Positions 3,142 through 62,274 of a stretch of DNA of 64,000 nucleotides are shown here, one piece after another. Origin of the DNA: Candidatus Poribacteria bacterium (GTDB lineage Bacteria; Poribacteria; WGA-4E; WGA-3G); NCBI GenBank assembly GCA_965205015.1, contig OZ242029.1:4974939-5038938 (forward strand), written 5' to 3'. Position numbers and translations under genes: made by a program. Positions within the stretch are counted from its first letter, which is position 1. Each line of letters starts with the position of its first letter. Under the pieces are notes generated by a model that was not told where the DNA came from, did not search any database, and saw only the letters and a program-made list of their open reading frames with translations.

Positions 3142-4089
3142 ATGGCATATCTGCTCACCGGTGGCATGGGGTGCATCGGTACTTACGTCATCCGCGACCT
3201 ATTGACCGCCGGTGAAAAGGTAGTCGTTTACGATTTTGCTTACGACCTGACGATCCCCAAAATGGTCCTCACGGATGAACAACTTGAAGGGTTCACCTTT
3301 GTGCAGGGCGACATCACCGACTTGCCACACGTTTTGCGCACTATTCAAGAACATGAGATTGATCGGGTCATCCATCTCGCCTCGTGGCAGGTACCGGCGT
3401 GCAACGCGAATCCACCAGAAGCGTTAAAGGTGGTTTGCGAAGGCACGATCAACATATTGGAAGCAGCGCGCATTTTCAAGCTCAAACGGGTTGTATGGGC
3501 AAGCAGTGTCGCAGTCTTCGGCGCACCCGAGGATTACAACCACGAACAGATTCTCAATGATGCCCCCCATTACCCGAAATTCATCTACGGAGCGTGCAAA
3601 TCCCTCAACGAAAGATATGCGATGCACTATTTCGATGCCTACGGTGTCGATTCGATTGGGCTCCGGTTTACTGCTGTCTATGGGGTCGGTAGAACCCGTG
3701 GCATGAGTTCATTCACAACGCAAATGATCGAAGCAGTGGCGTTAGGCAAACCACACGTCTGTCCGTTCGGTGATGATGCTGTGGATTGGCAGTATGTAGA
3801 GGATGTCTCCCGTTCGATCGTGGTCGCTTGCACCTGCCCAACAACGCAGACCCGCGTCTTCAATGTGAAGGGCGGTATCCGACCGGTCAAAGACGGCGTG
3901 GCGTACCTCAAGACGTTGGTGCCAGATGCACAGATTACGTTGGAGCCAGGGGTATTTGGAATCTCGTGGGATTACGACGCGACACCTATCGCTGAGGAGA
4001 TGGGATTTACGCCTGACTACACGATGGAAGAAGGGATTTTGAAAACGTTTAATCGTTTCCGGGAGCGTGCGGGGTTGGCGCTGATATAA
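3142..4089 (+). CDS. NAD-dependent epimerase/dehydratase family protein
   Basis: N-terminal LLTGGMGCIGTYV Rossmann motif; YGACK catalytic YxxxK. Confidence 0.85.
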   Translation: MAYLLTGGMGCIGTYVIRDLLTAGEKVVVYDFAYDLTIPKMVLTDEQLEGFTFVQGDITDLPHVLRTIQEHEIDRVIHLASWQVPACNANPPEALKVVCEGTINILEAARIFKLKRVVWASSVAVFGAPEDYNHEQILNDAPHYPKFIYGACKSLNERYAMHYFDAYGVDSIGLRFTAVYGVGRTRGMSSFTTQMIEAVALGKPHVCPFGDDAVDWQYVEDVSRSIVVACTCPTTQTRVFNVKGGIRPVKDGVAYLKTLVPDAQITLEPGVFGISWDYDATPIAEEMGFTPDYTMEEGILKTFNRFRERAGLALI

Positions 4090-4262: not shown

Positions 4263-5021
4263 CTAATAGTACTTTTTCATCTGTGCCCAAGTGACGGCTA
4301 ACTTCCCGCGGGCATCAACAGATAGCACCCGTTCCCACGGGATATTCTTTCCTCTGGAATCGGCTTGATGTATATCATCAAAGTTTGGATGTCCCCATCC
4401 ACCGCTATTGTTATCCACAACAACAATTTGGGCGGTCTTGCCTTGAAATTCGGAGACATCCCACTCTGCCCGCGCCATCGTTTCGGTGTTGTTCCCCGTC
4501 GATGTCCGCACGACTTTCCCTTTAATCTCAAGGTTAACACTACACGGCGCGGGGTCATCCTTCCAGGGGTGATTGCCGCCCCCGATGAGGAAGTTCATCG
4601 TTTTTCCGATAATCGTGAACTCGATTGAGGTGAGGGTGCCTTGCGGTCCATCGCCCTGCGTGGCACCTGGATTCTGTCCGAGTTTTTTCCCTTTATCTGG
4701 ACCTTGGTACTTTTCGTATAAACCTAACCACCAATCGCCTTGATGTTCAGAGGGCTGACCGCGGTTTCGGGCCGTTGGGTTATCTCCCCAGGTAGGTTGG
4801 AAATCGAAGGCAACGTCGTCTTTCTCCCAATCCGTGAGGTCGCCCGTCTCGAAGTCATTGTTAAACGCCCGTGCCGAGGCGATGTTAAGAGGCAGAACCA
4901 AGAGTATTAGGAGGACGGAGGGAATCATGAGCGGGAATACCATTTTTTTCATGAGATGCGTCTCCTTCTGTTTGTGAAAAGTTGTATGCTTCAGGTCATT
5001 TAGACAGGAACTTGTGAACAC
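4263..5021 (-). CDS. secreted concanavalin-like protein, DUF1080 (3-keto-disaccharide hydrolase)-like
   Basis: N-terminal signal peptide; FNNDFETGDLTDWE resembles DUF1080 FNGKDLTGWE; C-terminal KLAVTWAQMK motif shared with two LamG paralogs. Confidence 0.5.
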   Translation of the reverse strand: MFTSSCLNDLKHTTFHKQKETHLMKKMVFPLMIPSVLLILLVLPLNIASARAFNNDFETGDLTDWEKDDVAFDFQPTWGDNPTARNRGQPSEHQGDWWLGLYEKYQGPDKGKKLGQNPGATQGDGPQGTLTSIEFTIIGKTMNFLIGGGNHPWKDDPAPCSVNLEIKGKVVRTSTGNNTETMARAEWDVSEFQGKTAQIVVVDNNSGGWGHPNFDDIHQADSRGKNIPWERVLSVDARGKLAVTWAQMKKYY

Positions 5022-5112: not shown

Positions 5113-5625
5113 CTATAACAGGTCAACAATTTGTCTTGCGAACATCAAGCCGATGACGCAGATAATCGCTGTCAATGTCCGCTTTTCGCTTTTGAGGGCG
5201 CGTGTCCAAGAAAAATCGTGGGGAGAGGGTTCGGGATAAGAATGGAACTGGGGAACAAAGCGTGGCACACGCGTCCGGTATGCCTGATAGACGGGACCGC
5301 AGGATTCCAGCAAATACGCTTCCTCTATTGCGATAATCGGGAGGTATTGGAGGAGATAACCGATAATAAGAACGGCGACAAGCCAATAGACGTTCGCGAC
5401 CAGGCAGACACCGAGGCTGAGTAGGAAATTACCGAGATAAAGGGGGTTACGGACATATCCATAGGGACCGGTTGTGACAAGGTCGCGGGCGGCACCAAGG
5501 GTTCTGGCACGGGTAGATGCGCCGGCATATCCAACCGCCCATATCCTGAGAACCTCGCCCGTCGCAATGAACACTGCACCAATGCTTACGGTGTACCACA
5601 CAGGTTCAGCAAAATAAAGGAGCAC
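5113..5625 (-). CDS. isoprenylcysteine carboxyl methyltransferase (ICMT/PEMT) family membrane protein
   Basis: TGPYGYVRNPLYLGNFLL matches the RHPxY-type ICMT motif; multiple TM helices. Confidence 0.75.
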   Translation of the reverse strand: MLLYFAEPVWYTVSIGAVFIATGEVLRIWAVGYAGASTRARTLGAARDLVTTGPYGYVRNPLYLGNFLLSLGVCLVANVYWLVAVLIIGYLLQYLPIIAIEEAYLLESCGPVYQAYRTRVPRFVPQFHSYPEPSPHDFSWTRALKSEKRTLTAIICVIGLMFARQIVDLL

Positions 5626-5764
5626 AAGGATGAATGGGATAGGTGTGAAACTCCGGATTTTGAAGAAGAGGTTGCCGATTTTTTTAATTTTTCTTGCGGT
5701 TCGGTGAAGTCGGTGTGAACTTTTGTATGCCTCTCCGTATATCCGCCCTCCACGTTCCTACATC

Positions 5765-6826
5765 TTACTTCGGTGTACGCCAGATCATGATACCCCCAAC
5801 GGCAGCGTACATGAAGTTCGCGCCCCAACAGGCGAGAAAAGGATGAAGTTTGCCATTTTCACTCAATCCCTCAAGTACTGCAAAGGAGAGTGCCCAATAG
5901 ATAAAAGAGAGGAAGAAAGCGAGTACCAAACCCGCAAAGAAACCAGCCCTACCGAACCGGATAGCGATAGGTGCGCCAAGCATAATAACAACGACAGCTG
6001 CGAATGGGTACGCCGTTTTGTGATACAATTTTACCTGTTCTTTGCGCGAAATCTGTCCTGCTTCCTGTTTATAGGTGATCTGTTGGCGGAGTTCTTCGAT
6101 TGTCATGGCCCTCGGATCCTTTTCACTCCCGATAAAACGGGCGGGATCCTCGTGCCGCTCTATCGCATGCGTATCAAAAGCTTCATAACCGACCTCGACG
6201 CCCCTTTCAAAGTGGCGAATGTATCCATCCGTTAATTGCCAGTGGGTAGGTGTCCACACCGCTGTCTTCGCGAACGTTACGCGAGCGAGTTTCCCATCTG
6301 TATCATATTCATAGATAGTGAGTTGTTGGATTCTACGCGCGTCCAAAGCAATCCGCTGTGAGTAAAAGATACGGTCGCCTTTGCCTTTGAAGACGATGTT
6401 CCTGCCCCGACGCGGTCTAACGTTATTTTGTAAGAGATGCGCTTCATGAAAAGCAGGCGACGCAACCCGGTTATAAAAAATAGCGAAGAGTCCACAAATA
6501 ACGAGCGTTACCATCAAAACAGGCGCGAGGAGCCGGTAAACACTCAGACCGCCCGCCTTCATCGCGGTGAACTCGTTGCTCTGGACCATCCGACCCAGCA
6601 CAAAAAAGATGGCGACAAATGCAGCAACGGGCACTACCTCCATAATCCGACGCGGCGCTTGGAAGAGAACAATTTTAACAGCCGTCATATAAGCGACATC
6701 ATCATCAAACTTCTTGATGTCCTTATCCAGCAAACGCACGATAATAATCAGTGCGATAAAGAACAAAAGCCCGACAAAAAAGGCTTTCAGGTATTCGCGA
6801 AGCAGGTATCGATCTAAAATATTCAA
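5765..6826 (-). CDS. lptG: LPS export permease, LptF/LptG (YjgP/YjgQ) family, LptG-like
   Basis: MNILDRYLLREYLKAFFVGLLFF N-terminus typical of LptG; downstream member of tandem pair; TTG start. Confidence 0.8.
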   Translation of the reverse strand: MNILDRYLLREYLKAFFVGLLFFIALIIIVRLLDKDIKKFDDDVAYMTAVKIVLFQAPRRIMEVVPVAAFVAIFFVLGRMVQSNEFTAMKAGGLSVYRLLAPVLMVTLVICGLFAIFYNRVASPAFHEAHLLQNNVRPRRGRNIVFKGKGDRIFYSQRIALDARRIQQLTIYEYDTDGKLARVTFAKTAVWTPTHWQLTDGYIRHFERGVEVGYEAFDTHAIERHEDPARFIGSEKDPRAMTIEELRQQITYKQEAGQISRKEQVKLYHKTAYPFAAVVVIMLGAPIAIRFGRAGFFAGLVLAFFLSFIYWALSFAVLEGLSENGKLHPFLACWGANFMYAAVGGIMIWRTPK

Positions 6827-6848
6827 TTTTTAATTATACCTTGCGGAA
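6827..6848 (-). promoter_or_regulatory. conserved CCGCAAGG-TATAAT-TAAAAA motif abutting lptG start
   Basis: On the minus strand TATAAT ends 6 nt before the TTG start codon; same motif recurs at 8170, 22034, 27859, 30795, 51452 (and orphan copies at 9113, 62067). Confidence 0.4.
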
Positions 6849-6969
6849 TAAGGACATGGAACTGGCAATCAAGTGCCTTTCTTAAATCCGTTCTCCACTA
6901 CGTTACGGACTACAGACTTAGGATTTTGAGAAGAATTACAGGTACTGGCTGCTGACAGCCTCCCTTCGG

Positions 6970-8169
6970 TTATGATTCGACTTTCCTATTGACGACAAGC
7001 GTCAGCGTGTCGCGGGCGCGCCACGTCAGCAAGATCCCCTCGCCGATCATACGAATACTGAGAAAAACGCCCAACACGCCAATTGCTATATTGGGAAGCC
7101 ACATGGCAAGGGCAGGAGATATCATGCCGTTCAAACCTGCACTTTGACCGATCTGAAGCAGTAAGTAGTAAACCAAGATGACAGTTAATCCAATACCAAA
7201 CCCAATCATCTTACCGCCCTGTTTTACCATCAATCCAAGGGGCACGCCCATCAATCCGAACGCCAGACATGCGAAAGGGATAGAAAACTTTTTGTGGTAC
7301 TCAACCTCCGCGACACGGAGTTTATTCCGGGTATAGTCAGGATTCTGACTGGTTTGGACGGCGGCTTCCAAAGTATTGATGAATGCCTTGAGTTGGACGA
7401 TAGTCATGGACCGGGGTGTTTGGTTCCGTAAAGCCCCACGCTCCAGATCCTCGGTCAACTGCAGTGCGAGTTGTTGCTGCCGGAACTTTGTTATACGATA
7501 TCCATCCGAATTATCGGTTGTCGGTTCGTATGTAAGTCCATCGTAAAGCGTGAGCACGGCTCTGCCATTTTCAAAACCGAGGGTCCCTTCTTGCGCGTGA
7601 CTGAAACGAGGCCGTCCTGTCCAGATCCCATCCCATATTTTGACATCCTGCATGCGTCCACTCTTGGCATCCGTGGATTCGTACATCCAGAGTTTGCCTT
7701 CTCTCTCCAACTCCTTCATAACGGTGGCTTCTTCCAAAACGAACGTCGGATTGTGTCTTTGGATGTCGCGTTTGAGTGTCGCGTAAGCGAGATTTGCCCT
7801 TGGTAGCGCGTAGTCCATTAATCCGAGATTAACGATGCTTAGGACCACTGCCATGCCTAAAAGCGGGAGCATCAGGTGATGGAAAGCGAGCCCGTGTGCC
7901 TTCATGGCGATGATTTCATTATCGGTAGAGAGTCTTCCAAGAGAAAGTAAAATTGCGACCAAAGCCGCCATCGGAAGAGATAACACAACCGAAGCGGGCA
8001 TCACATAGATAAGCAACTCAACCAGATAAATCGGACTTATCCCCTTCTGCACAAAAAGTTTCGTCAACCGAAACAGGTCATCGAAGATGAGGATAAAGGT
8101 AAAACAGATAAGTGCTATTATGAAGGGTGGAAGAAATTCTTTAAGTATATACCGCGCTAATATTCTCAT
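6970..8169 (-). CDS. lptF: LPS export permease, LptF/LptG family, LptF-like
   Basis: MRILARYILKEFLPPFIIALICFTFIL N-terminus; 399 aa, multi-TM; upstream partner of lptG. Confidence 0.8.
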   Translation of the reverse strand: MRILARYILKEFLPPFIIALICFTFILIFDDLFRLTKLFVQKGISPIYLVELLIYVMPASVVLSLPMAALVAILLSLGRLSTDNEIIAMKAHGLAFHHLMLPLLGMAVVLSIVNLGLMDYALPRANLAYATLKRDIQRHNPTFVLEEATVMKELEREGKLWMYESTDAKSGRMQDVKIWDGIWTGRPRFSHAQEGTLGFENGRAVLTLYDGLTYEPTTDNSDGYRITKFRQQQLALQLTEDLERGALRNQTPRSMTIVQLKAFINTLEAAVQTSQNPDYTRNKLRVAEVEYHKKFSIPFACLAFGLMGVPLGLMVKQGGKMIGFGIGLTVILVYYLLLQIGQSAGLNGMISPALAMWLPNIAIGVLGVFLSIRMIGEGILLTWRARDTLTLVVNRKVES

Positions 8170-8191
8170 TTTTTAATTATTCGCAAGACGT
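8170..8191 (-). promoter_or_regulatory. variant of the start-abutting motif (CGTCTTGCG-AATAAT-TAAAAAA-ATG)
   Basis: Same architecture as 6827 motif with AATAAT in place of TATAAT, immediately upstream of lptF ATG. Confidence 0.3.
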
Positions 8192-8217
8192 TAAAATAAG
8201 GGGGTCTGTTTATGAGT

Positions 8218-8310
8218 CGTTTTCCTTTATATCCGCCCGCGTGTTTTTGCCAACGCTGAAATCCAATGCGAAGAAAGTCTTTGCTTGGGTATTTCTGCGT
8301 ATTGTTGCAG
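8218..8310. repeat. mosaic intergenic repeat (copy A)
   Basis: tttatatccgcc(c/t)gcgtgtttttgc(c/a)aacgct(g/a)aaatccaatgcgaagaaagt...atttctgcgtattgttgcaggct nearly identical to 51490-51590. Confidence 0.6.
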
Positions 8311-8423
8311 GCTGCCGTCTTAAGATAATTTTCGTAACCGTAGCTTCCCGTAAGCGAAGTGGAGCACTGATACAGTTCTCCTCTGTTTGTTGATTTGTGC
8401 CGGAAAAACCTTCATAATTTAAT

Positions 8424-8939: not shown

Positions 8940-8967
8940 CGTGTTAAAAGCGTGTCAAGCCCAAAAC

Positions 8968-9060
8968 ACCAAAAACCAAGCCCGAAACGTAGTGGAGGTG
9001 TTTTTGCTTGGGGTGTTTTTGCTTGGGTATTTCTGCGTATTGATAGGGTGTTTCTGCGTA
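8968..9060. repeat. intergenic repeat cluster with internal tandem duplications
   Basis: gtgtttttgcttggg x2 and gt(a/g)tttctgcgtatt x2; contains the ACACCCAAGCAAAAACACC module in reverse orientation. Confidence 0.55.
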
Positions 9061-9112
9061 TTTCTTCAACTCGAACACGAAAAACATTAAGATACAGGTT
9101 CCCGTTCCCTAT

Positions 9113-9131
9113 CCGCAAGGTAAAATTAATA
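9113..9131 (+). promoter_or_regulatory. orphan plus-strand copy of CCGCAAGGTAAAATTAA motif
   Basis: Motif in plus orientation at the 3' end of the minus-strand aldolase gene; would be antisense. CCGCAAGG...CGTTGCGG also forms an inverted repeat. Confidence 0.3.
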
Positions 9132-10190
9132 CTCTTGATACCACGTTGCGGATTGCTTGGCAATCTGAACGTTTTTCACACCCCCAAATTGGCGATGCTC
9201 AAACCACGGTAAGGCGTTCTCCGCTGCAGCGTTTGCGTTCTTGAAGTTCGTTGTTGCCTCGTTCTCCAAAAACTGCTGAACTGCTCCCGTATCAGGATAG
9301 TATTGGACAGCATCTTTCCAGATAGCTCTGCCGCAAAGGAAACCACTTGCCCCGGCACCGGTCGCCAGGTCAACGTTTTCAATGAATTCCTCAATATCCA
9401 CACCGGCACTCAAAATTACCCACGGGAGTGTCGAGGTTTCATCTAACTTCTGGCAGATGTCCTTCACTTCAGCGAGTTCATACGCAGCGTCGCCTGCATA
9501 AAAACTGGTATCTTTATAATCCGTTGTGTATTTCAGATCAGCAGGAAATTCTAACTTCAGAATGTCAACTTTGTAACTGGGATCCGTGAACTCCTCAACA
9601 CTCCGAATCACAAGGTCGGGTTTCTGTTTCGCGAAGGCGACACTCTTCGTCGTCCCCTCAAGTGCATAACTGACTAATTCCAACAAAAATGGTAAATCCT
9701 GCTTTTCGCATTCGTCCCCGACATGACGCACAAAGGCTTGTTGGTGTTCAAGGGTTTCAGCGGAGGCATCAGGGTGGTAATAGGCGAGGAGTTTAATGGC
9801 ATCTGCCCCGGCACGCTGTGCCTTGGCGATGCTCCAGTTTGCAATCGGATTGGAGAGCCGTTCGTTTTCAGCCACACCTTCACTGACATACCCCGATTCT
9901 TCATAGGCTAAGAGCAATGCGACATCCCGTGGAATCTCGGTGATAGAGTAGGGATGCCCGTAAATTGGGTCGGTCAGAACGGCGGTTGCATTTGGGGAAA
10001 GGATTCGAGTAATCAAAGTCTTCAGGGCTGCGACATCATCGTATTGGACATCAGCATTGTCCTTGTTGAGCGTATCTGCAAGTGCCTGTACCATGGAACC
10101 GCGCTGGTCAATCGCCATCATTTTAAAGCGACCCTTTGCATCGGCGAGTTTCATGATCCCCCGCAATTTACCAGAGGAAATATCGTTCAT
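9126..10190 (-). CDS. lacD: tagatose-1,6-bisphosphate aldolase family protein (class I, LacD-like)
   Basis: KLRGIMKLADAKGRFKMMAIDQRGS, LLAYEESGY, FLLELVSY, VDILKLEFP, WVILSAGV, GFLCGRAIW align block by block with S. aureus LacD. Confidence 0.7.
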   Translation of the reverse strand: MNDISSGKLRGIMKLADAKGRFKMMAIDQRGSMVQALADTLNKDNADVQYDDVAALKTLITRILSPNATAVLTDPIYGHPYSITEIPRDVALLLAYEESGYVSEGVAENERLSNPIANWSIAKAQRAGADAIKLLAYYHPDASAETLEHQQAFVRHVGDECEKQDLPFLLELVSYALEGTTKSVAFAKQKPDLVIRSVEEFTDPSYKVDILKLEFPADLKYTTDYKDTSFYAGDAAYELAEVKDICQKLDETSTLPWVILSAGVDIEEFIENVDLATGAGASGFLCGRAIWKDAVQYYPDTGAVQQFLENEATTNFKNANAAAENALPWFEHRQFGGVKNVQIAKQSATWYQEY

Positions 10191-10311
10191 TTAGTTCTCC
10201 TTTTTTGCTGGTTATCGGTTATCAGCCTTCAGGGGTCAGTTTTAAGAGGTTTTCGTTTAACAAAGGTTTCCTCCCGTTGCTGACTGCTGACTGCCGACCA
10301 CTGAAGGCTAT

Positions 10312-21924: not shown

Positions 21925-22033
21925 TTTTGTAGGGACAGGTAGTTGTGTCCCACTAACCGTTTCTTGAAAGAGAACCTCATTCGCAGAAGTTGTTGATTTA
22001 GCATTTTATCAGAATATCATAATAGTATCAAAT

Positions 22034-22052
22034 TTTTAATTTTACCTTGCGG
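22034..22052 (-). promoter_or_regulatory. CCGCAAGGTAAAATTAAAAA motif ~110 nt upstream of amt
   Basis: Same conserved motif, here followed by a leader containing CTGATAA/CAACAAC elements and a GGGACA...TGTCCC hairpin. Confidence 0.35.
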
Positions 22053-22189
22053 TTAAATGGTAGATAAAAAAAGTGGAACGTCCACAGAACGTGAAGTAAC
22101 TCAGGGATATAAGTGAAACTTCGTGTGGACGTTCCTATTCGGTTTTCAGTCTCCGTCTTATTTGGAGCGAAGACTATATCGCAATATAT

Positions 22190-23551: not shown

Positions 23552-23581
23552 CAGTCAGTTATCAGTTGTCAGCAGTCAGTG
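23552..23581 (-). promoter_or_regulatory. TGAYWRC heptad-repeat element in amt 5' leader
   Basis: Sense strand CACTGACTGCTGACAACTGATAACTGACTGCC just upstream of RBS/ATG; related copies upstream of 10190 and 24795. Confidence 0.35.
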
Positions 23582-24521: not shown

Positions 24522-24794
24522 GATTTTGCCTGTCTTTTTCGATAAAAGGGGACAGGCGTTTATCGTAAAGACGAGGTAACCGCGCCCCTACGGTTGCACC
24601 TATTTCCGTTTAAAGCAAAAGGCGTGCCAATTAATAGTTATCGGTCGTCAGTGCATTCGCTTCGCTCATTTTCAGTTGTCAGTAATCTAAACACCACAAG
24701 CATTTAACCGATAATAGATAATGAATAACTCTTGCTGTTAGGTAAACTTTTAAAACTGATAACCGACAACTGATAACTGACAACTCTTAAAAAA

Positions 24795-27858: not shown

Positions 27859-27878
27859 CTTTTAATTATACCTTTTAG
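27859..27878 (-). promoter_or_regulatory. AAAAGG-TATAAT-TAAAAG motif abutting trpF ATG
   Basis: TATAAT ends 6 nt before ATG; preceded by GGGATT-tgta-AATCCC hairpin after the cupin gene. Confidence 0.4.
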
Positions 27879-30794: not shown

Positions 30795-30818
30795 TTTTTA
30801 ATTCTTCCTTAGCGGTTA
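30795..30818 (-). promoter_or_regulatory. variant start-abutting motif CCGCTAAGG-AAGAAT-TAAAAAA-ATG
   Basis: Same architecture as 6827 motif. Confidence 0.3.
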
Positions 30819-35940: not shown

Positions 35941-35980
35941 ACACAAAGATTGTTTTAATTATATCACATATTCTCAGGGA

Positions 35981-36847
35981 ATGCAAGAAAAATTTACCTT
36001 CTTCGGAAAAATGACTCAAAAACCGCAAACAGATCCATTTTTTTCCTTCGCGAATCTTGATAGTAACGAAGTTGAACTCGCAACAGGTGCCCTGCTCATC
36101 GCGCAAAGCGAGTATCGCGAACTCAATATTGAGAATTACCTCTACCAACTTGACGAGATGGCGGCTGCGGTCCGGGAACGGATCCAAGCGGCAACGCTAC
36201 CTGAGCAGCACATCACCGAATTGAATCGATATCTCTTTGAGGAAAAAGGCTTCACAGGAAATATCGATAATTATTACGCGCTCGGTAACAACTTCCTCAA
36301 CTTTGTCCTTGATAAAAAGACAGGGATTCCAATCACGTTAGGTGTTGTCTACATCGAAGTTGGTAGACGCGCTGGGTTACCACTCGTCGGTGTAAATTTT
36401 CCAGGGCATTTCCTTGTCAGATACCAACGCGAACATTTAGACATCCTGCTTGATGTATTTGAAAACGGATCCTTTATGTGCGAAGACGCACTTCGGGCAA
36501 AACTCCAAGAAACCCACGGTGACTCGGTACCGCTGGAATCGAGTATGTTGACTGAAGCCACAGATAAAGAGATCCTTGCCCGCATTTTGCGGAATCTGAC
36601 GCGCGCCTACACGCTCCTTGAAAACTACGATAAAGCCCTTACAGCCGCTGAACGCATTACGTGGTTGTTACCAAACACCGCCCCGGACTACCGCCTGCTC
36701 GGTTACCTACACTACAAAAATCATGCGTACAGCAAAGGTATCGCCGCCTTCGAGACATATCTCCGCCTCGCAGACGCTCCGCCCGATGCCACGGCAGTCG
36801 AGCGAAACATACAGCACCTCCAAAAGCTACTCTCGCGTCTGAATTAA
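35981..36847 (+). CDS. transglutaminase-like/TPR protein (SirB1/YchA family)
   Basis: LPLVGVNFPGHFLVRY matches transglutaminase-like core-2 region; TPR-like C-terminus. Confidence 0.65.
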   Translation: MQEKFTFFGKMTQKPQTDPFFSFANLDSNEVELATGALLIAQSEYRELNIENYLYQLDEMAAAVRERIQAATLPEQHITELNRYLFEEKGFTGNIDNYYALGNNFLNFVLDKKTGIPITLGVVYIEVGRRAGLPLVGVNFPGHFLVRYQREHLDILLDVFENGSFMCEDALRAKLQETHGDSVPLESSMLTEATDKEILARILRNLTRAYTLLENYDKALTAAERITWLLPNTAPDYRLLGYLHYKNHAYSKGIAAFETYLRLADAPPDATAVERNIQHLQKLLSRLN

Positions 36848-51328: not shown

Positions 51329-51340
51329 GTTTTTTTAATT

Positions 51341-51449
51341 GGGACTTACGCAATTTTCCATGAAATGCTCCATATTGCGCCAGTGGCGAGGTTAGGAGGG
51401 AAACACCCAAGCAAAAACACCTCGCCAGCGGGACGGGCTGCGTAAGTCC
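51341..51449. mobile_element. MITE-like ~109-bp insertion with 11-bp terminal inverted repeats GGACTTACGCA
   Basis: GGGACTTACGCA...TGCGTAAGTCC flanked by TTAATT on both sides; splits a copy of the TTTTTAATTATACCTTGCGG motif; carries an internal GGCGAGG...CCTCGCC hairpin with ACACCCAAGCAAAAACACC insert. Confidence 0.45.
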
Positions 51450-51680
51450 TGTTAATTATACCTTGCGGGAGAATAACGTGAGTTTGAATGTTTGACGCAC
51501 CTTCTTTATATCCGCCTGCGTGTTTTTGCAAACGCTAAAATCCAATGCGAAGAAAGTATTTCTGCGTATTGTTGCAGGCTACGTGTCTGGTAGAAAGTTG
51601 TAAAGTGTTCCAAAATCTGTGAAGTTGGGCAAGAAAGTCAGTAAAGTATTTTGGTTTAAGAATTATAACGACTTCCATTT

Positions 51681-53172: not shown

Positions 53173-54795
53173 GTGACAACCCCTCTTCTCCACATGCAAG
53201 CCATTACCAAAGATTTTCCCGGCGTGCGCGCCTTAGATGACGTCTCTTTTGAAGTACATCCGGGTGAAATCCATGCCCTGTGTGGAGAAAACGGGGCGGG
53301 CAAATCAACGTTGATTAAGATACTCGGCGGTGTCTATCCGTACGGAACTTACGAAGGACACCTGAACATCAATGGAAACGCGCAGCAATTCTATAGCGTG
53401 CGGGATGCAGAACGTGCTGGAATCGCCGTCATCCATCAGGAACTGGCACTTATTCCAGAAATGACGGTCGCTGAGAACATCTACCTCGGCAAAGAACCGT
53501 GCCACTTCGGCACTATTAACAGGCATCGTCTCTACCACGAAGCAGGCGAACTCCTTTCGCAGTTTGGATTGACGATTCCACTGCATAAATCCGTCCATGA
53601 ACTCGGGATCGGACAACAACAACTCGTAGAAATCGCGAAGGCTTTAGGACGTAGCTTGCAAGCCAACAGCGAAGCGTCAAGGAGTGCCTTGTTACTCGTG
53701 CTGGACGAACCGACAGCCGCTCTGACCGAAAGCGAAGTAGACATCCTTCGGCAGATTCTGACCCAACTCCGGGAAAAGGGGGTCGCCTGTATCTACATCA
53801 CCCATAAACTCAAGGAGATTTTTCAGATTGCTGACCGAGTAACGGTACTACGAGACGGTAAAGCAGTTGCAACGCACTCCATTAAATCATCTGAATGTAC
53901 CGAAGAAGTACTCATTTCACAGATGGTCGGACGCGAACTAACCGCCCTGTTTCCAAAACGGCGAACGCCCTCTACTGATGAAAATGGGGCACGTCAAGAA
54001 GATGTAGCACTCCGAGTAGAAAACTTAAACACCTATCCATTGGAACCTCCTCAGCTGAAAGATATCAGTTTCGAGGTACGACGCGGGGAAATCCTCGGAA
54101 TCGCAGGTTTGATGGGCGCGGGAAGGACAGAATTGATCAGTACCATTTTCGGTGCGTATGAGGGTAGGCAGAGTGGCGAAATCGTTATAGACGGTACCAC
54201 CGTTCAGATTCACGCGCCACTCGAGGCAATACAGCACGGAATGGCACTCGTTAGCGAAGATCGGAAACGCTACGGTCTTCTTTTAGACGTGGATGTCGTT
54301 CGCAACATGACGCTTGCGAGTCTCAATGTGTCGTCAGGCATCACATCACACGGAATCATTAACGAAAACACGGCACTCGAAAAAAGCGAGCATTACGTGG
54401 ATTCCCTCCAGATTAAGACGACTTCACTTGAAGCTCCTGTGAACCACCTCAGCGGCGGCAACCAACAGAAAGTCGTTCTCGCGAAATGGTTGATGACACA
54501 TCCGAAGGTGTTATTTCTTGATGAACCGACACGCGGGATTGATGTCGGTGCGAAGGCAGAAATTCACACGCTGATGGCAGAACTTGCGCAAGCGGGTGTC
54601 GCAATTGTGTTTGTCTCCTCTGAACTCCCAGAAATCCTTGGCATGAGCGATCGGGTCATAGTGCTACATGAAGGCAAAATCACGGGTGAATTTATCAACG
54701 ATAACCTGACACAAGCGGACATTTTGCGATGTGCCGCTGGTAATTATGAGCTCCAAGCAAAAACACCCGCCTCACCGAACCGCAAGGTAAATTAA
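53173..54795 (+). CDS. sugar ABC transporter ATP-binding protein (duplicated ATPase, RbsA/XylG/MglA type)
   Basis: Two NBDs: GENGAGKST / LSGGNQQKV and a second Walker A/signature set; no permease or SBP gene adjacent. Confidence 0.85.
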   Translation: MTTPLLHMQAITKDFPGVRALDDVSFEVHPGEIHALCGENGAGKSTLIKILGGVYPYGTYEGHLNINGNAQQFYSVRDAERAGIAVIHQELALIPEMTVAENIYLGKEPCHFGTINRHRLYHEAGELLSQFGLTIPLHKSVHELGIGQQQLVEIAKALGRSLQANSEASRSALLLVLDEPTAALTESEVDILRQILTQLREKGVACIYITHKLKEIFQIADRVTVLRDGKAVATHSIKSSECTEEVLISQMVGRELTALFPKRRTPSTDENGARQEDVALRVENLNTYPLEPPQLKDISFEVRRGEILGIAGLMGAGRTELISTIFGAYEGRQSGEIVIDGTTVQIHAPLEAIQHGMALVSEDRKRYGLLLDVDVVRNMTLASLNVSSGITSHGIINENTALEKSEHYVDSLQIKTTSLEAPVNHLSGGNQQKVVLAKWLMTHPKVLFLDEPTRGIDVGAKAEIHTLMAELAQAGVAIVFVSSELPEILGMSDRVIVLHEGKITGEFINDNLTQADILRCAAGNYELQAKTPASPNRKVN

Positions 54796-54799
54796 AAAA

Positions 54800-57645: not shown

Positions 57646-57912
57646 ATGAATACACGCTTAAACAAAAAGCACCAAAGGACATTAGAGGCTATTTTTAGCA
57701 CACAAACGCCAGCAACGTTGCAATGGCGGCGGATTGAAGCCCTTTTCAAAGCACTGGGTGCTACAAAAAAGGAGAGACGAGGCTCGGGTGTGACATTTAG
57801 GTTGAATGGAGAAACTGTCGGTTTTCACCTCCCTCACCCTCGCAAAGAGGCACATCGATATCACATTCGTGATGCCCGAGATTTTTTGAAACGAGTAGGA
57901 ATAACATTATGA
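57646..57912 (+). CDS. hicA: type II toxin HicA family (long form)
   Basis: KHQRTLEAIF...WRRIEALFKALGA...GSGVTFRLNGETVGFHLPHPRKEAHRYHIRDARDFLKRVGI matches HicA/YcfA mRNA-interferase pattern (GSH...HxP...K). Confidence 0.6.
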   Translation: MNTRLNKKHQRTLEAIFSTQTPATLQWRRIEALFKALGATKKERRGSGVTFRLNGETVGFHLPHPRKEAHRYHIRDARDFLKRVGITL

Positions 57913-58160
57913 AGACAATAACATATAAAGGATACACTGCGGAAATTATCTATAGTGACGAGGATGATTGCTTTGTTGGTCATATCATCAATATTGATGC
58001 CATTGTTGGTTTTCATGGCGATACTGACGAAGAATTGCGCGACGCTTTTGAAAACATGGTAGAACTTTACATCGAAACCCTTGAGGCACCAGAAAACGCG
58101 CCGCAAAAGCATGATGCTGGTGGTTTTTGGGCACGCCTACGTGAAGTTTTCCATCTGTAG
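57909..58160 (+). CDS. hicB: type II antitoxin HicB family (short, lacks C-terminal DNA-binding domain)
   Basis: YKGYTAEIIYSDEDDCFVGHIINIDAIVGFHGDTDEELRDAFENMVELYIE typical HicB N-domain; overlaps hicA stop by 4 nt; only 83 aa. Confidence 0.6.
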   Translation: MKTITYKGYTAEIIYSDEDDCFVGHIINIDAIVGFHGDTDEELRDAFENMVELYIETLEAPENAPQKHDAGGFWARLREVFHL

Positions 58161-60308: not shown

Positions 60309-60560
60309 ATGAAGACAATGACATACCGAGGGTATACAGTGGAAATTATCTACAGTGAAGAAGATGAATGCTTTGTCGGGGATGTTATCAATATTGATGA
60401 TATCATTTGTTTCCACGGTGATACCGATGAAGAATTACGCGTTGCTTTTGAAGGCGTGGTAGATCTCTATCTGGAGGCACTGGAGGAACCAGAGAACCCG
60501 CCACAAAAACACTTTGCGTGGCGGTTTCTATCGCGTCTACGGCAAGCCTTCCACTTGTAA
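60309..60560 (+). CDS. hicB: HicB family antitoxin paralog (orphan)
   Basis: ~70% identical to 57909..58160 product (MKTMTYRGYTVEIIYSEEDECFVGDVINIDDIICFHGDTDEELR). Confidence 0.6.
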   Translation: MKTMTYRGYTVEIIYSEEDECFVGDVINIDDIICFHGDTDEELRVAFEGVVDLYLEALEEPENPPQKHFAWRFLSRLRQAFHL

Positions 60561-61334: not shown

Positions 61335-62066
61335 ATGGGACAATTAGATGGAAAATTTGCGATTGTAACGGGTGGAAACCGAGGCATCGGAAGAGGGATT
61401 GCGAGAGGGCTTGCTGCTGAGGGCGCGACGCTCACAATCGCCGCAAGGGATGCCGACCTCCTTGAAGAAACCGCCAACGAATTCCGCGCAAACGGCACAA
61501 AAGTGTTGACTGTCCCGACCGATGTAACGGACGAGGCACAGATCAAAGCACTCTTTGAAAAGTCGATGGACGCGTACGGGCGTTTGGATATCCTCGTCAA
61601 TAACGCAGGGGCATTCAATGGGGGTCCCATCGGTGAACTCGCAACGGAAGATTGGGATTGGGTTATTAATGTGAATCTCCGTGCGCCGTTTATCTGTTCA
61701 CGCGAGGCATTCGCAATTATGAAAGCACAAGGTGAAGGGGGACGTATCATCAACGTCGGGAGTATCTCTGCGCATCGCGTCCGTCCCCGAACAGCCCCTT
61801 ACAGTGCGAGCAAATTCGGTATCTGGGGCTTGACCCAGGTAACAGCTCTTGAAGGTAGACCGTTCGGTATCACAGCGAGTTGTTTGCAACCGGGGAACAC
61901 TTACGTAGAACGGCACCAAAACCGCCCACAAGCCCCTATGGAACCGATGATGGACGTTGACGATCTCGCGCAAGCCGCCGTTCTCATGGCGACGCTTCCG
62001 CCGAATATCAATATGCTGGAAGCAACCGTCCTACCGATCGGTCAACTCTATGTCGGGCGTGGATAA
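61335..62066 (+). CDS. SDR family oxidoreductase
   Basis: VTGGNRGIGRGIARGL; YSASKFG YxxxK. Confidence 0.85.
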   Translation: MGQLDGKFAIVTGGNRGIGRGIARGLAAEGATLTIAARDADLLEETANEFRANGTKVLTVPTDVTDEAQIKALFEKSMDAYGRLDILVNNAGAFNGGPIGELATEDWDWVINVNLRAPFICSREAFAIMKAQGEGGRIINVGSISAHRVRPRTAPYSASKFGIWGLTQVTALEGRPFGITASCLQPGNTYVERHQNRPQAPMEPMMDVDDLAQAAVLMATLPPNINMLEATVLPIGQLYVGRG

Positions 62067-62240
62067 CTTTTTAATTTTACCTTGCGGCGCATTGGCGGGC
62101 AGGTACAAGACCTGCCCCTACAAGATGCCTATTTATTCCTCTGGTTTACTATTTGTCGTGTATATCTCGAATTTGAAGAAACACCCAAGCAAAACACCCT
62201 GCGCCGTTGTTGCAGGCTGCGTTTTTGGTTAAGAATCGCG
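62067..62240. repeat. composite intergenic repeat (motif copy + GGCAGGTACAAGACCTGCC-CCTACAAG element + ACACCCAAGCAAAACACC + GTTGTTGCAGGCTGCG module)
   Basis: Concatenation of four modules each found elsewhere in the window. Confidence 0.55.
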
Positions 62241-62274
62241 AGCACAACTCGCTCTTACAGGAAAATCTTCACCG

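Follow-up and report, generated by a model that had tools for sequence, protein, structure and literature searches.

A 20-base core adjoining start codons in Poribacteria forms the end of an interspersed repeat with a GTAG hairpin

The core and the genes next to it

We analysed a stretch of 64,000 nucleotides (nt) from the genome of a Candidatus Poribacteria bacterium (GenBank assembly GCA_965205015.1, contig OZ242029.1, positions 4,974,939 to 5,038,938 of the forward strand), hereafter called the window, in which a 20-base sequence, CCGCAAGG-TAWAAT-TAAAAA (the core), recurs directly before the start codons of genes such as lptG, trpF and tsaE. Poribacteria are uncultivated symbionts of sponges. 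An earlier, sequence-only reading of the window had taken such copies for candidate leaderless promoters and had described them as isolated boxes of about 20 nt. Alignment of all copies revealed instead that the core is the sharp 3' end of a longer, mosaic intergenic repeat of about 105 nt, whose parts are described below. When three mismatches or fewer were allowed, the core matched six times in the window (starts at 6827, 9113, 22033, 51449, 54780 and 62068) where no match was expected, and all six had two mismatches at most; about five degenerate copies were present besides, and CCGCAAGG alone occurred 13 times against 1.9 expected. Pfam matches supported the identities of the LptG, LptF, PRAI (TrpF), HEAT/PDZ, Amt and TsaE genes. 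The domain matches of LptG, LptF and TrpF began 6-11 residues from the called starts, while the N-terminal extension of Amt was longer. An abutting core was used by 5 of about 62 window genes (about 8%), and most of the remaining genes possessed ordinary leaders of the GGAGG type.

At lptG, the exact core CCGCAAGGTATAATTAAAAA (6827-6846, - strand) is followed without any gap by the TTG start codon (6826), and the LptF_LptG match begins at residue 6. The motif reported at this site is real. Both the core and the TTG are kept in the ortholog at the poribacterial locus L034. The remainder of the lptG unit (6847-6932, -) comprises a linker (6847-6889), a GTAG-tagged hairpin GTAGTCCGTAACGTAGTGGAGAAC (6890-6913) and an A-rich left flank. 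An nhmmer profile search recovered this unit at 6826-6925, and about 115 nt of the region were absent from the L034 ortholog. At lptF, a degenerate core GTCTTGCGAATAATTAAAAA (8170-8189, -) adjoins the ATG (8169); its AAGG is gone, and AATAAT-TAAAAA is retained. The L034 ortholog has CCGCAAGGTAAGTTAAAAAA followed by ATG at this position. The upstream portion of the lptF unit (8194-8337, -) was recognized from nhmmer matches and from alignment with L034; it is likewise degenerate and contains the module GAAATACCCAAGCAAA in inverted orientation.

Similar arrangements were found at three further genes. A degenerate core CTAAAAGGTATAATTAAAAG (27859-27878, -) adjoins the ATG of trpF (27858), the PRAI match of which begins at residue 9; in the L089 and L036 orthologs, this position is occupied by consensus cores. 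The ATG of the HEAT/PDZ gene (30794) is preceded by a degenerate core with a 1-nt insertion, CCGCTAAGGAAGAATTAAAAA (30795-30815, -), where the L089 ortholog has CCGCAAGGAATAATTAAAAA and then ATG. On the opposite strand, the core variant CCGCAAGGTAAATTAAAAAA (54780-54799, +) adjoins the GTG start of tsaE (54800), with a TsaE match from residue 11. An upstream open reading frame (ORF) encoding an ABC ATPase (Pfam ABC_tran) stops at a TAA located within this core (54793-54795).

At the lipoprotein gene, the core is split. A repeat unit at 51452-51617 (-) ends with the 5' part of the core (CCGCAAGGTATAATTAA, 51452-51468), whereas the 3' remnant AATTAAAAAAAC (51329-51340, -) lies directly before the ATG (51328). 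The two halves are parted by an insert of about 111 nt (51341-51451, -), which is flanked by a duplicated AATTAA and leaves the 5' half about 120 nt upstream of the ATG, and the ortholog in L087 has an unsplit core followed by AC and ATG. The insert itself is palindromic. It has terminal inverted repeats GGACTTACGCA and TGCGTAAGTCC and, further in, a second inverted repeat (GCTGGCGAGGT with ACCTCGCCAC(T)GGC) whose arms match perfectly for about 10 nt, and it includes the module GTTTTTGCTTGGGTGTTTC, also found within many units of the main repeat. The insert has the look of a small mobile element distinct from that repeat.

The remaining copies do not abut a start codon. An exact core that lacks all upstream modules of the repeat (22033-22052, -) is located 108 nt upstream of the amt ATG (21924), in good agreement with the leader of about 110 nt given by the sequence-only reading. 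This core has a terminator-like palindrome on one side and a canonical promoter on the other (TTGATA at 22026-22031, a 17-nt spacer and TAAAAT at 22003-22008), and the corresponding site in L025 has one additional full repeat unit. Just upstream of the amt core, at about 22070-22145 (-), two perfectly matching 12-bp arms form an inverted repeat, GGAACGTCCACA ... TGTGGACGTTCC, with T7 behind it. This element, also conserved in L025, could either terminate transcription of the upstream gene or bind a regulator. A degenerate unit (5672-5762, -), ending in CCGCAAGAAAAATTAAAAAA (5680-5699), lies 54 nt upstream of the ORF at 5113-5625.

Two units point towards gene ends. The unit at 8962-9132 (+), with two mismatches in its core (9113-9132), faces the 3' end of a convergent gene of the DeoC family, the TAA stop of which (9126-9128) falls within the core; the layout is the same in L034. 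About 17 nt past this core, within the 3' end of the DeoC-family gene, a terminator-like hairpin with a T-run was noted at 9149-9176 (+). If active, the core at this site would yield an antisense RNA of about 45 nt. The other unit (62068-62242, -), with an exact core at 62068-62087, is oriented in reverse between two + strand genes, and its core begins 1 nt past the stop of an SDR gene (61335-62066). Read in the direction of the SDR gene, the hairpin end of this unit is followed by a T-rich tract (CCTGCGCCGTTGTTGCAGG CTGCG TTTTTGGTT).

From these sites it can be judged how the earlier claims about the window fared. The proposal that the hexamer ends 6 nt before the start codon was borne out at lptG, lptF, trpF and the HEAT/PDZ gene, the latter three with degenerate copies, but only in part at the lipoprotein gene, where the insert of about 111 nt intervenes. 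The list of abutting cases was incomplete, for tsaE, a fifth case, had been overlooked. CCGCAAGG was said to be invariant, but the copies at lptF, trpF and the HEAT/PDZ gene have diverged precisely there. Finally, the copies at 9113 (+) and 62068 (-) point at the 3' ends of genes rather than at starts.

Distribution of the core

The exact 20-mer was present in at least 114 stretches of the reference genomes, which comprise one genome per species. Of these stretches, 112 were labelled as Poribacteria and the other two came from one metagenome-assembled genome; by our own estimate, about two such stretches would be expected by chance in the whole genome collection. Metagenomes, represented by a few samples, contributed at least 120 further stretches with the motif, and no copy was found in the viral contigs scanned. 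The repeat is restricted to one phylum, the sponge-associated Poribacteria. Segments of the window were about 82-92% identical to, and syntenic with, five poribacterial loci, which identifies the window itself as poribacterial. Exact look-up of the window's proteins in a contig index, aimed at its own genome and at transcript-like contigs, returned no record. Our literature searches found no report of the motif sequence, of poribacterial promoters or of poribacterial repeats.

The loci studied below were selected for the presence of the exact 20-mer. Genes in them were called by the longest-ORF rule, and in a check with a codon model 731 of the 735 called genes scored best in their own frame.

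Position and orientation relative to genes

In the genome loci and the window taken together, 40 of 155 copies have a long ORF whose first base directly follows the motif (36 ATG, 2 GTG and 2 TTG), while ORF starts 1, 2 and 3 nt further downstream were seen in 8, 4 and 2 copies, respectively. An independent set of 135 metagenome copies gave the same picture: exact abutment occurred in 37 of the 77 copies facing a gene start (33 ATG, 2 GTG and 2 TTG), and the motif was followed by ATG in 40 of the 135 copies, where about two would be expected by chance (our own estimate, 1 in 64). Taken over the two sets, exact abutment accounts for 35-48% of the start-facing copies and for about a quarter of all copies. 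About 90% of the abutting start codons are ATG. Exact abutment is about five times as frequent as an offset of +1 or -1. Unlike this sharp peak, the distance between Shine-Dalgarno (SD) sequences and start codons is broad in the same genomes. Several copies are directly followed by GGAG or GAGG, with the start codon 8-17 nt downstream. The tie to start codons proposed for the window therefore holds in this wider survey, and the original observation was largely correct and far stronger than the window alone could show.

The orientation of the core is biased as well. Between genes of the same strand it points toward the next start in 106 versus 25 cases in the genomes and in 63 versus 12 in the metagenomes, that is 169 versus 37 in total. 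Divergent regions contain 15 and 6 copies, and convergent regions are depleted (5 of 151 and 5 of 86 units). About 80% of the composite units are aimed at the start of the next gene. Of the copies that face gene ends, 18 of 28 and 12 of 23 overlap the gene by exactly 7 nt, so that the TAA stop of the gene is the TTA of the core read in reverse. The window copies at 9113 and 62068 are among those facing gene ends, and the ORFs faced in this way are genuine according to codon usage. At orthologous sites, the motif is kept while the flanking sequence diverges.

Anatomy of the repeat

Conservation halts at the last A of the motif and continues for about 85-95 nt upstream. Four parts can be distinguished: an A-rich left flank ttAAACCAAAACC, a hairpin of about 24 nt starting with GTAG (for example GTAGCCTGCAACAACGGCGCAGGC), a 45-nt linker GGATATACGGAAAGGCACGTCAAAGTCCAAACCCACGTCATTGAA that occurs in several sub-families, and the 20-mer core. 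In about one fifth of the units (a rough estimate from listings), the hairpin is followed by an additional 21-nt module, GGTTTTTGCTTGGGTGTTTC. The distance between hairpin and core is constant, 65-66 nt, or 85-89 nt when the additional module is present. A profile of the units gave 241 matches in 961 kb, of which 10 were in the window. The core also occurs alone, as do the window copies at amt and trpF and the copy at the lptG site of L034. Tandem copies are common, some duplicating a 21-nt core only and others the whole unit.

The hairpin is real and has undergone compensatory changes. Stem variants such as GCCT/AGGC, GCCC/GGGC, GTCC/GGAC, GCAC/GTGC and GCTC/GAGC all keep the pairing. In alignment A1, the helix of 6 pairs had 89.8% of cells paired, and in 56 cells both sides had changed; no shuffle out of 500 equalled that covariation, and controls with slid arms were at most 49% paired. 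Among 116 units, the tag before the stem had G in 76 (66%), T in 78 (67%) and A in 112 (97%), and its final G pairs with the last C of the stem. Read from the side of the core, the hairpin gains an extra CCGTA/TACGG pairing (-17 kcal/mol, z = -2.7) and is followed by UUUUGGUUU. Strand-specific selection at the RNA level was sought in the mismatches of the hairpin, and no asymmetry appeared between the G-U and A-C types (7 versus 6).

A second, long-range stem in the 45-nt linker (AGGAAC/GTTCCT, TCGATTA/TAATCGA) was considered and rejected: the mean folding z was +0.5, and complementarity within units (3.72) hardly differed from that between arms taken from different units (3.60; p about 0.11 by permutation). 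A search against Rfam 15 returned only a tRNA at gathering score in the window, and the region 6780-6990, searched with E up to 10, gave nothing but a microRNA match attributable to chance. A simple promoter and terminator scan called neither the core nor the hairpin, the former because it has no -35 box, the latter presumably because its loop exceeds the 8-nt limit of the scan.

A possible promoter for leaderless mRNAs

Our preferred interpretation, held tentatively and given a little less than an even chance, is that the core acts as a promoter without a -35 box, producing mRNAs that are leaderless or have very short leaders, and that the whole repeat would constitute a terminator-plus-promoter cassette. 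The core would be a promoter of the sigma-70 type with TAWAAT as the -10 element. RNA polymerase or a lineage-specific factor would read AAGG (-16 to -13) and, more loosely, CCGC (-20 to -17) as an extension on the upstream side. TAAAAA would be the discriminator, and transcription would start at the first base past the motif. Where ATG follows directly, the mRNA would be leaderless; where GGAG follows, an SD sequence and a spacer would make up the entire leader. Transcription entering from the side of the core would be stopped by the hairpin end and the A/T-rich tract adjoining it, and a sub-family with an added T-run may also stop transcription coming from the upstream gene. The cassette would have been multiplied, tandemly duplicated and lost at individual sites. 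The sequences directly show the anatomy, the copy number, the confinement to one phylum, the statistics of position and orientation and the covariation of the hairpin; promoter activity, the start position, the reader of CCGCAAGG and the spread of the repeat are what we infer from them.

Several observations speak for this interpretation. In leaderless genes, the spacing between the -10 element and the start codon is 6-8 nt (PMC6028130), and in the abutting copies the gap between the hexamer of the core and the start codon is exactly 6 nt. The geometry of the leaderless model put forward by the sequence-only reading holds at scale. The sharp offset peak, the abrupt end of conservation, the orientation towards gene starts and the retention of the motif at orthologous sites count in favour of a promoter as well. 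At 189 canonical promoter-like sites in the same sequences, A is enriched at the seventh base past the -10 element, which in the core corresponds to the A of ATG. Among 111 near-consensus copies, the A at -11 was never changed and the T at -7 only once, while -12 and -10 vary freely. Of the degenerate copies abutting start codons, 12, including that of lptF in the window, retain the -11/-7 pair without AAGG, and only one retains AAGG without the pair. At lptF, lptG, trpF and tsaE there is nothing but the motif before the start codon, so for these housekeeping genes the motif must supply the expression signals. The SD sequences found directly after other copies suggest that gene-specific leaders begin at the motif boundary. 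Moreover, the hairpin is terminator-like when read from the core side, which fits the copies facing gene ends: a reversed unit resembles a terminator of the gene that has its stop codon within the unit.

A number of findings weigh against a promoter. The core contains neither a -35 hexamer at 16-18 nt nor a TGn; the consensus reads AAACCC or AAACGC at -35 and AGG at -15 to -13. CCGCAAGG was earlier thought to replace the -35 box, but it lies at -20 to -13 from the presumed start, in the spacer and extended -10 region. The clear promoters of the phylum are canonical (TTGACA or TTGATA, a 17-nt spacer and TATAAT, often with TGn). Textbook sigma-70 sites are found in the window at 22003-22031 (-) before amt and at 35941-35990 (-), in L113 at 4580-4615 (-), and in L040, L043 and L048; together such sites precede amt, tRNA-Ala, a T-box leader and other tRNA genes. 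Hence, the housekeeping sigma factor appears to be conventional. AAGG precedes the -10 element in only 2 of the 189 canonical sites, and TAAAA follows it in only 3, so the flanks of the core do not reflect a general preference of this polymerase. AAGG is located in register -16, the commonest one for GGAGG SD sequences in these genomes, although it is only 4 nt long and is lost in some abutting copies. The invariance of -11 and -7 is itself weak evidence, because several other positions are equally invariant and many of the variants are inherited states of sub-families. Furthermore, lptG (TTG) and tsaE (GTG) have non-AUG starts at operon-like junctions (lptF and lptG are 28 nt apart in L034), about 20% of the copies face gene ends, and every divergent region inspected also has a canonical promoter-like site upstream or downstream of the repeat. 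The core was never demonstrably the sole promoter.

Alternative explanations

A serious rival, which we consider rather unlikely as the main role but which may coexist with promoter activity, is that the repeat works at the level of mRNA as a module for translation initiation. It would then be transcribed from upstream, through operon read-through or by a canonical promoter, AAGG would serve as a weak SD sequence and UAUAAUUAAAAA as an unstructured, A/U-rich landing site for ribosomes; stop codons in two frames would end upstream translation, and the hairpin would stabilise or separate mRNA segments. AAGG is indeed among the least variable parts of the core, its position at -16 is the modal register of the GGAGG SD, and neither AAGG nor TAAAA is a feature of canonical promoters here. 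The junctions with TTG and GTG starts are tight (28 nt between lptF and lptG in L034, 4 nt between the ABC ATPase and tsaE), a canonical promoter just upstream points through the repeat in L007, L041, L033 and L087, and REP (repetitive extragenic palindromic) sequences are generally thought to act as RNA (PMC3733652). However, the start codon offset is far sharper than the SD spacing of the same genomes, and many copies have a strong SD of their own, lie 50-300 nt from starts or precede a canonical -35 box. The degenerate abutting copies also keep the -10-like A/T bases more often than AAGG (12 versus 1, the lptF copy being one without AAGG), and with no excess of G-U over A-C mismatches in the hairpin (7 versus 6) nothing marks the sense strand as functional RNA. 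The strict form, in which the repeat always lies behind a canonical promoter as a pure 5' untranslated region, was rejected, as only 12 of 115 units had a canonical promoter-like site within 120 nt upstream, compared with 5 on the opposite strand. Another possibility, that the core is an UP-element-like enhancer or an insulator for adjacent canonical promoters, its A/T-rich half contacting the alpha subunits of RNA polymerase, seems most improbable. Units do lie just upstream of a canonical promoter at amt and in L092, L098 and L026, and at amt (in the window and in L025), L092 and L098 the -35 box follows the core by 1-4 nt, which puts AAAATTAAAAA at about -37 to -48; this arrangement was seen in only a handful of copies, and it is inapplicable to the copies, about a quarter or more of all, that abut start codons.

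The repeat shows the behaviour of mobile or recombining DNA: orthologs differ in which units they have, gene starts have been duplicated, and an ORF appears to begin inside a unit. It might be asked whether it is only a selfish interspersed repeat, REP-like or another kind of small mobile DNA, with an accidental likeness to a -10 element and a fit to codons that reflects the insertion sites made or tolerated. Its very many copies are near-identical over about 105 nt and fall into sub-families, and tandem arrays occur upstream of genes (L072, 2651-3522, -, seven units, 142 nt; the metagenome contigs L117, 3716-3993, and L170, 1906-2183, four units, 86 nt each). Presence and absence of units at orthologous sites point the same way, as does an extra unit flanked on both sides by the start codon and the next 10-12 nt (ATGTCCAAAG and ATGAGTTATCAG; L036, 6580-6730, +; L059, 7737-7910, +), which seems to have been inserted just within the gene, duplicating the gene start. 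In L005 (about 7526-7590, -) and L091 (about 3450-3520, +), the trpB ORF apparently starts at an ATG in the linker and reads through the one open frame of the core, so that part of the repeat would be translated. The overlap of the AT-rich end with stop codons (18 of 28 and 12 of 23 end-facing copies) also fits, since contiguity with ORFs and supply of stop codons are known in GTAG REPs (PMC3733652). Nevertheless, the orientation bias to gene starts (169 versus 37) and the tolerance of copies at essential start codons are left unexplained if the repeat is purely selfish: a copy set against a housekeeping start removes any other SD or promoter and so must give expression signals in order to be tolerated. 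The core is moreover kept at orthologous positions where flanks and upstream modules change. Terminal inverted repeats are missing, as inversion of one unit end (TTAAACCAAAACC...) does not give the other (...GGTAWAATTAAAAA), and comparison of left and right flanks revealed no regular target-site duplication outside the tandem arrays and two special cases. On balance, we hold a merely selfish origin of the pattern to be improbable. Quite improbable, too, is the alternative named by the sequence-only reading, here taken as a regulon whose dedicated protein, either a lineage-specific regulator or an alternative sigma factor, recognises CCGCAAGG, with TAWAAT secondary and no constitutive promoter. 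The 8-mer is far better conserved than an ordinary promoter spacer, absent from the canonical promoters of the same genomes and confined to one phylum. The genes downstream, however, share no theme (export of lipopolysaccharide, tryptophan synthesis, tRNA modification, ammonium uptake, a lipoprotein), and degenerate copies that look functional drop CCGC and even AAGG, keeping the AT-rich half. The motif is not known to match any sigma-28, sigma-32, sigma-54 or extracytoplasmic function sigma pattern. A sigma-54 promoter based on GGCACG of the linker was rejected, as the -12 GC is missing and GGCACG occurs in some sub-families only (alignment A1).

Comparison with known systems

As a candidate promoter for leaderless genes, the core most resembles those of Actinobacteria and Deinococcus-Thermus (GeneMarkS-2 group C; PMC6028130), with which it shares a -10 element at 6-8 nt, the apparent lack of an SD, the predominance of ATG and the coexistence with SD-led genes. 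The group C signal, however, is a degenerate TANNNT with an independent origin at each gene, whereas the poribacterial one is a near-identical 20-mer ending a repeat of about 105 nt. Such near-identity among copies is unlike any ordinary class of promoter, and the conserved CCGCAAGG has no counterpart in group C promoters.

The hairpin meets the structural definition of a GTAG REP. With GTAG REPs, bacterial interspersed mosaic elements (BIMEs) and REPINs (PMC3733652, PMC2817692), it has in common the GTAG hairpin of about 24 nt, stem variants that keep pairing, many extragenic copies, a mosaic build, and contact with ORFs or supply of stop codons. Unlike REPs, it stands at a set distance (65-66 or 85-89 nt) from a core that resembles a promoter and is not palindromic. 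The place of classical REPs is behind genes, whereas poribacterial units aim at gene starts and are few between convergent genes; most are single hairpins rather than inverted pairs.

The Correia elements of Neisseria (PMC2649163) are likewise short interspersed repeats; their end can create a promoter and so control the neighbouring gene, where the poribacterial unit has a promoter-like end, and they occur in many copies and differ among strains. They possess 26-bp terminal inverted repeats, a TA target duplication and binding of IHF and RNase III, none of which was found in the poribacterial repeat. The two have no sequence similarity, and promoters of Correia elements give transcripts with leaders.

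The poribacterial unit also touches start and stop codons in a way that recalls the mycobacterial interspersed repetitive units (MIRUs) attributed to Supply et al. (1997), which are reportedly oriented intercistronic repeats of 40-100 nt, with ends overlapping the flanking stop and start codons, and are said to carry small coupled ORFs in operons. It differs from them in having stops in two frames and a -10-like end and in occurring also in divergent regions.

Taken together, the repeat might be described as a REP-type mosaic repeat combined with a -10 promoter for leaderless genes, both of known kinds; the promoter part of this description is possible, though we would not put it quite at an even chance. 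A more far-reaching scenario, which is speculative and on present evidence unlikely, is that Poribacteria harbour a self-propagating repeat that delivers promoters. A hairpin of REP type, possibly moved by an enzyme resembling REP-associated tyrosine transposases (RAYTs), would have been fused at a constant distance to a promoter without a -35 box, the CCGCAAGG of which is read by lineage-specific machinery. Landings at start codons would have made many genes leaderless, some of them essential, while reversed copies would supply stops and terminators, so that the repeat would act as mobile punctuation of transcription units.

Should the core prove to be a promoter, many of the transcription starts, a large share, would be marked by the same 20-base sequence, and a class of leaderless genes would be revealed in a phylum for which none is known to have been described. 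This would allow better calls of gene starts and provide a compact, portable expression signal. It would also represent a clear case of a repeat spreading promoters, with REP-like DNA tied to gene starts rather than ends. Even if the core acts on mRNA instead, the repeat is still a previously unreported, phylum-wide one that delimits genes.

Other observations in the window

One further resemblance of the core came to our attention. Its CCGCAAGGT appears identical to the top of helix 27 of Escherichia coli 16S rRNA (CCGCAAGGUUAAAACUCAAA), and the A-rich tail appears similar; this is probably a chance likeness.

Short repeats resembling ACTGATAAC cluster in intergenic regions just upstream of SD-led genes (24755-24784, +; 24637-24683, 10211-10226 and 23558-23566, all -). 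There were 21 matches compared with 11.4 expected, a level attained in 1 of 100 shuffles.

Two similar ORFs of 83 codons are located at 57909-58160 (+) and 60309-60560 (+). Each begins with ATGAAGACAAT, their upstream sequences are alike, and an ORF of 88 codons precedes the first. The pair may represent a duplicated module of small genes.

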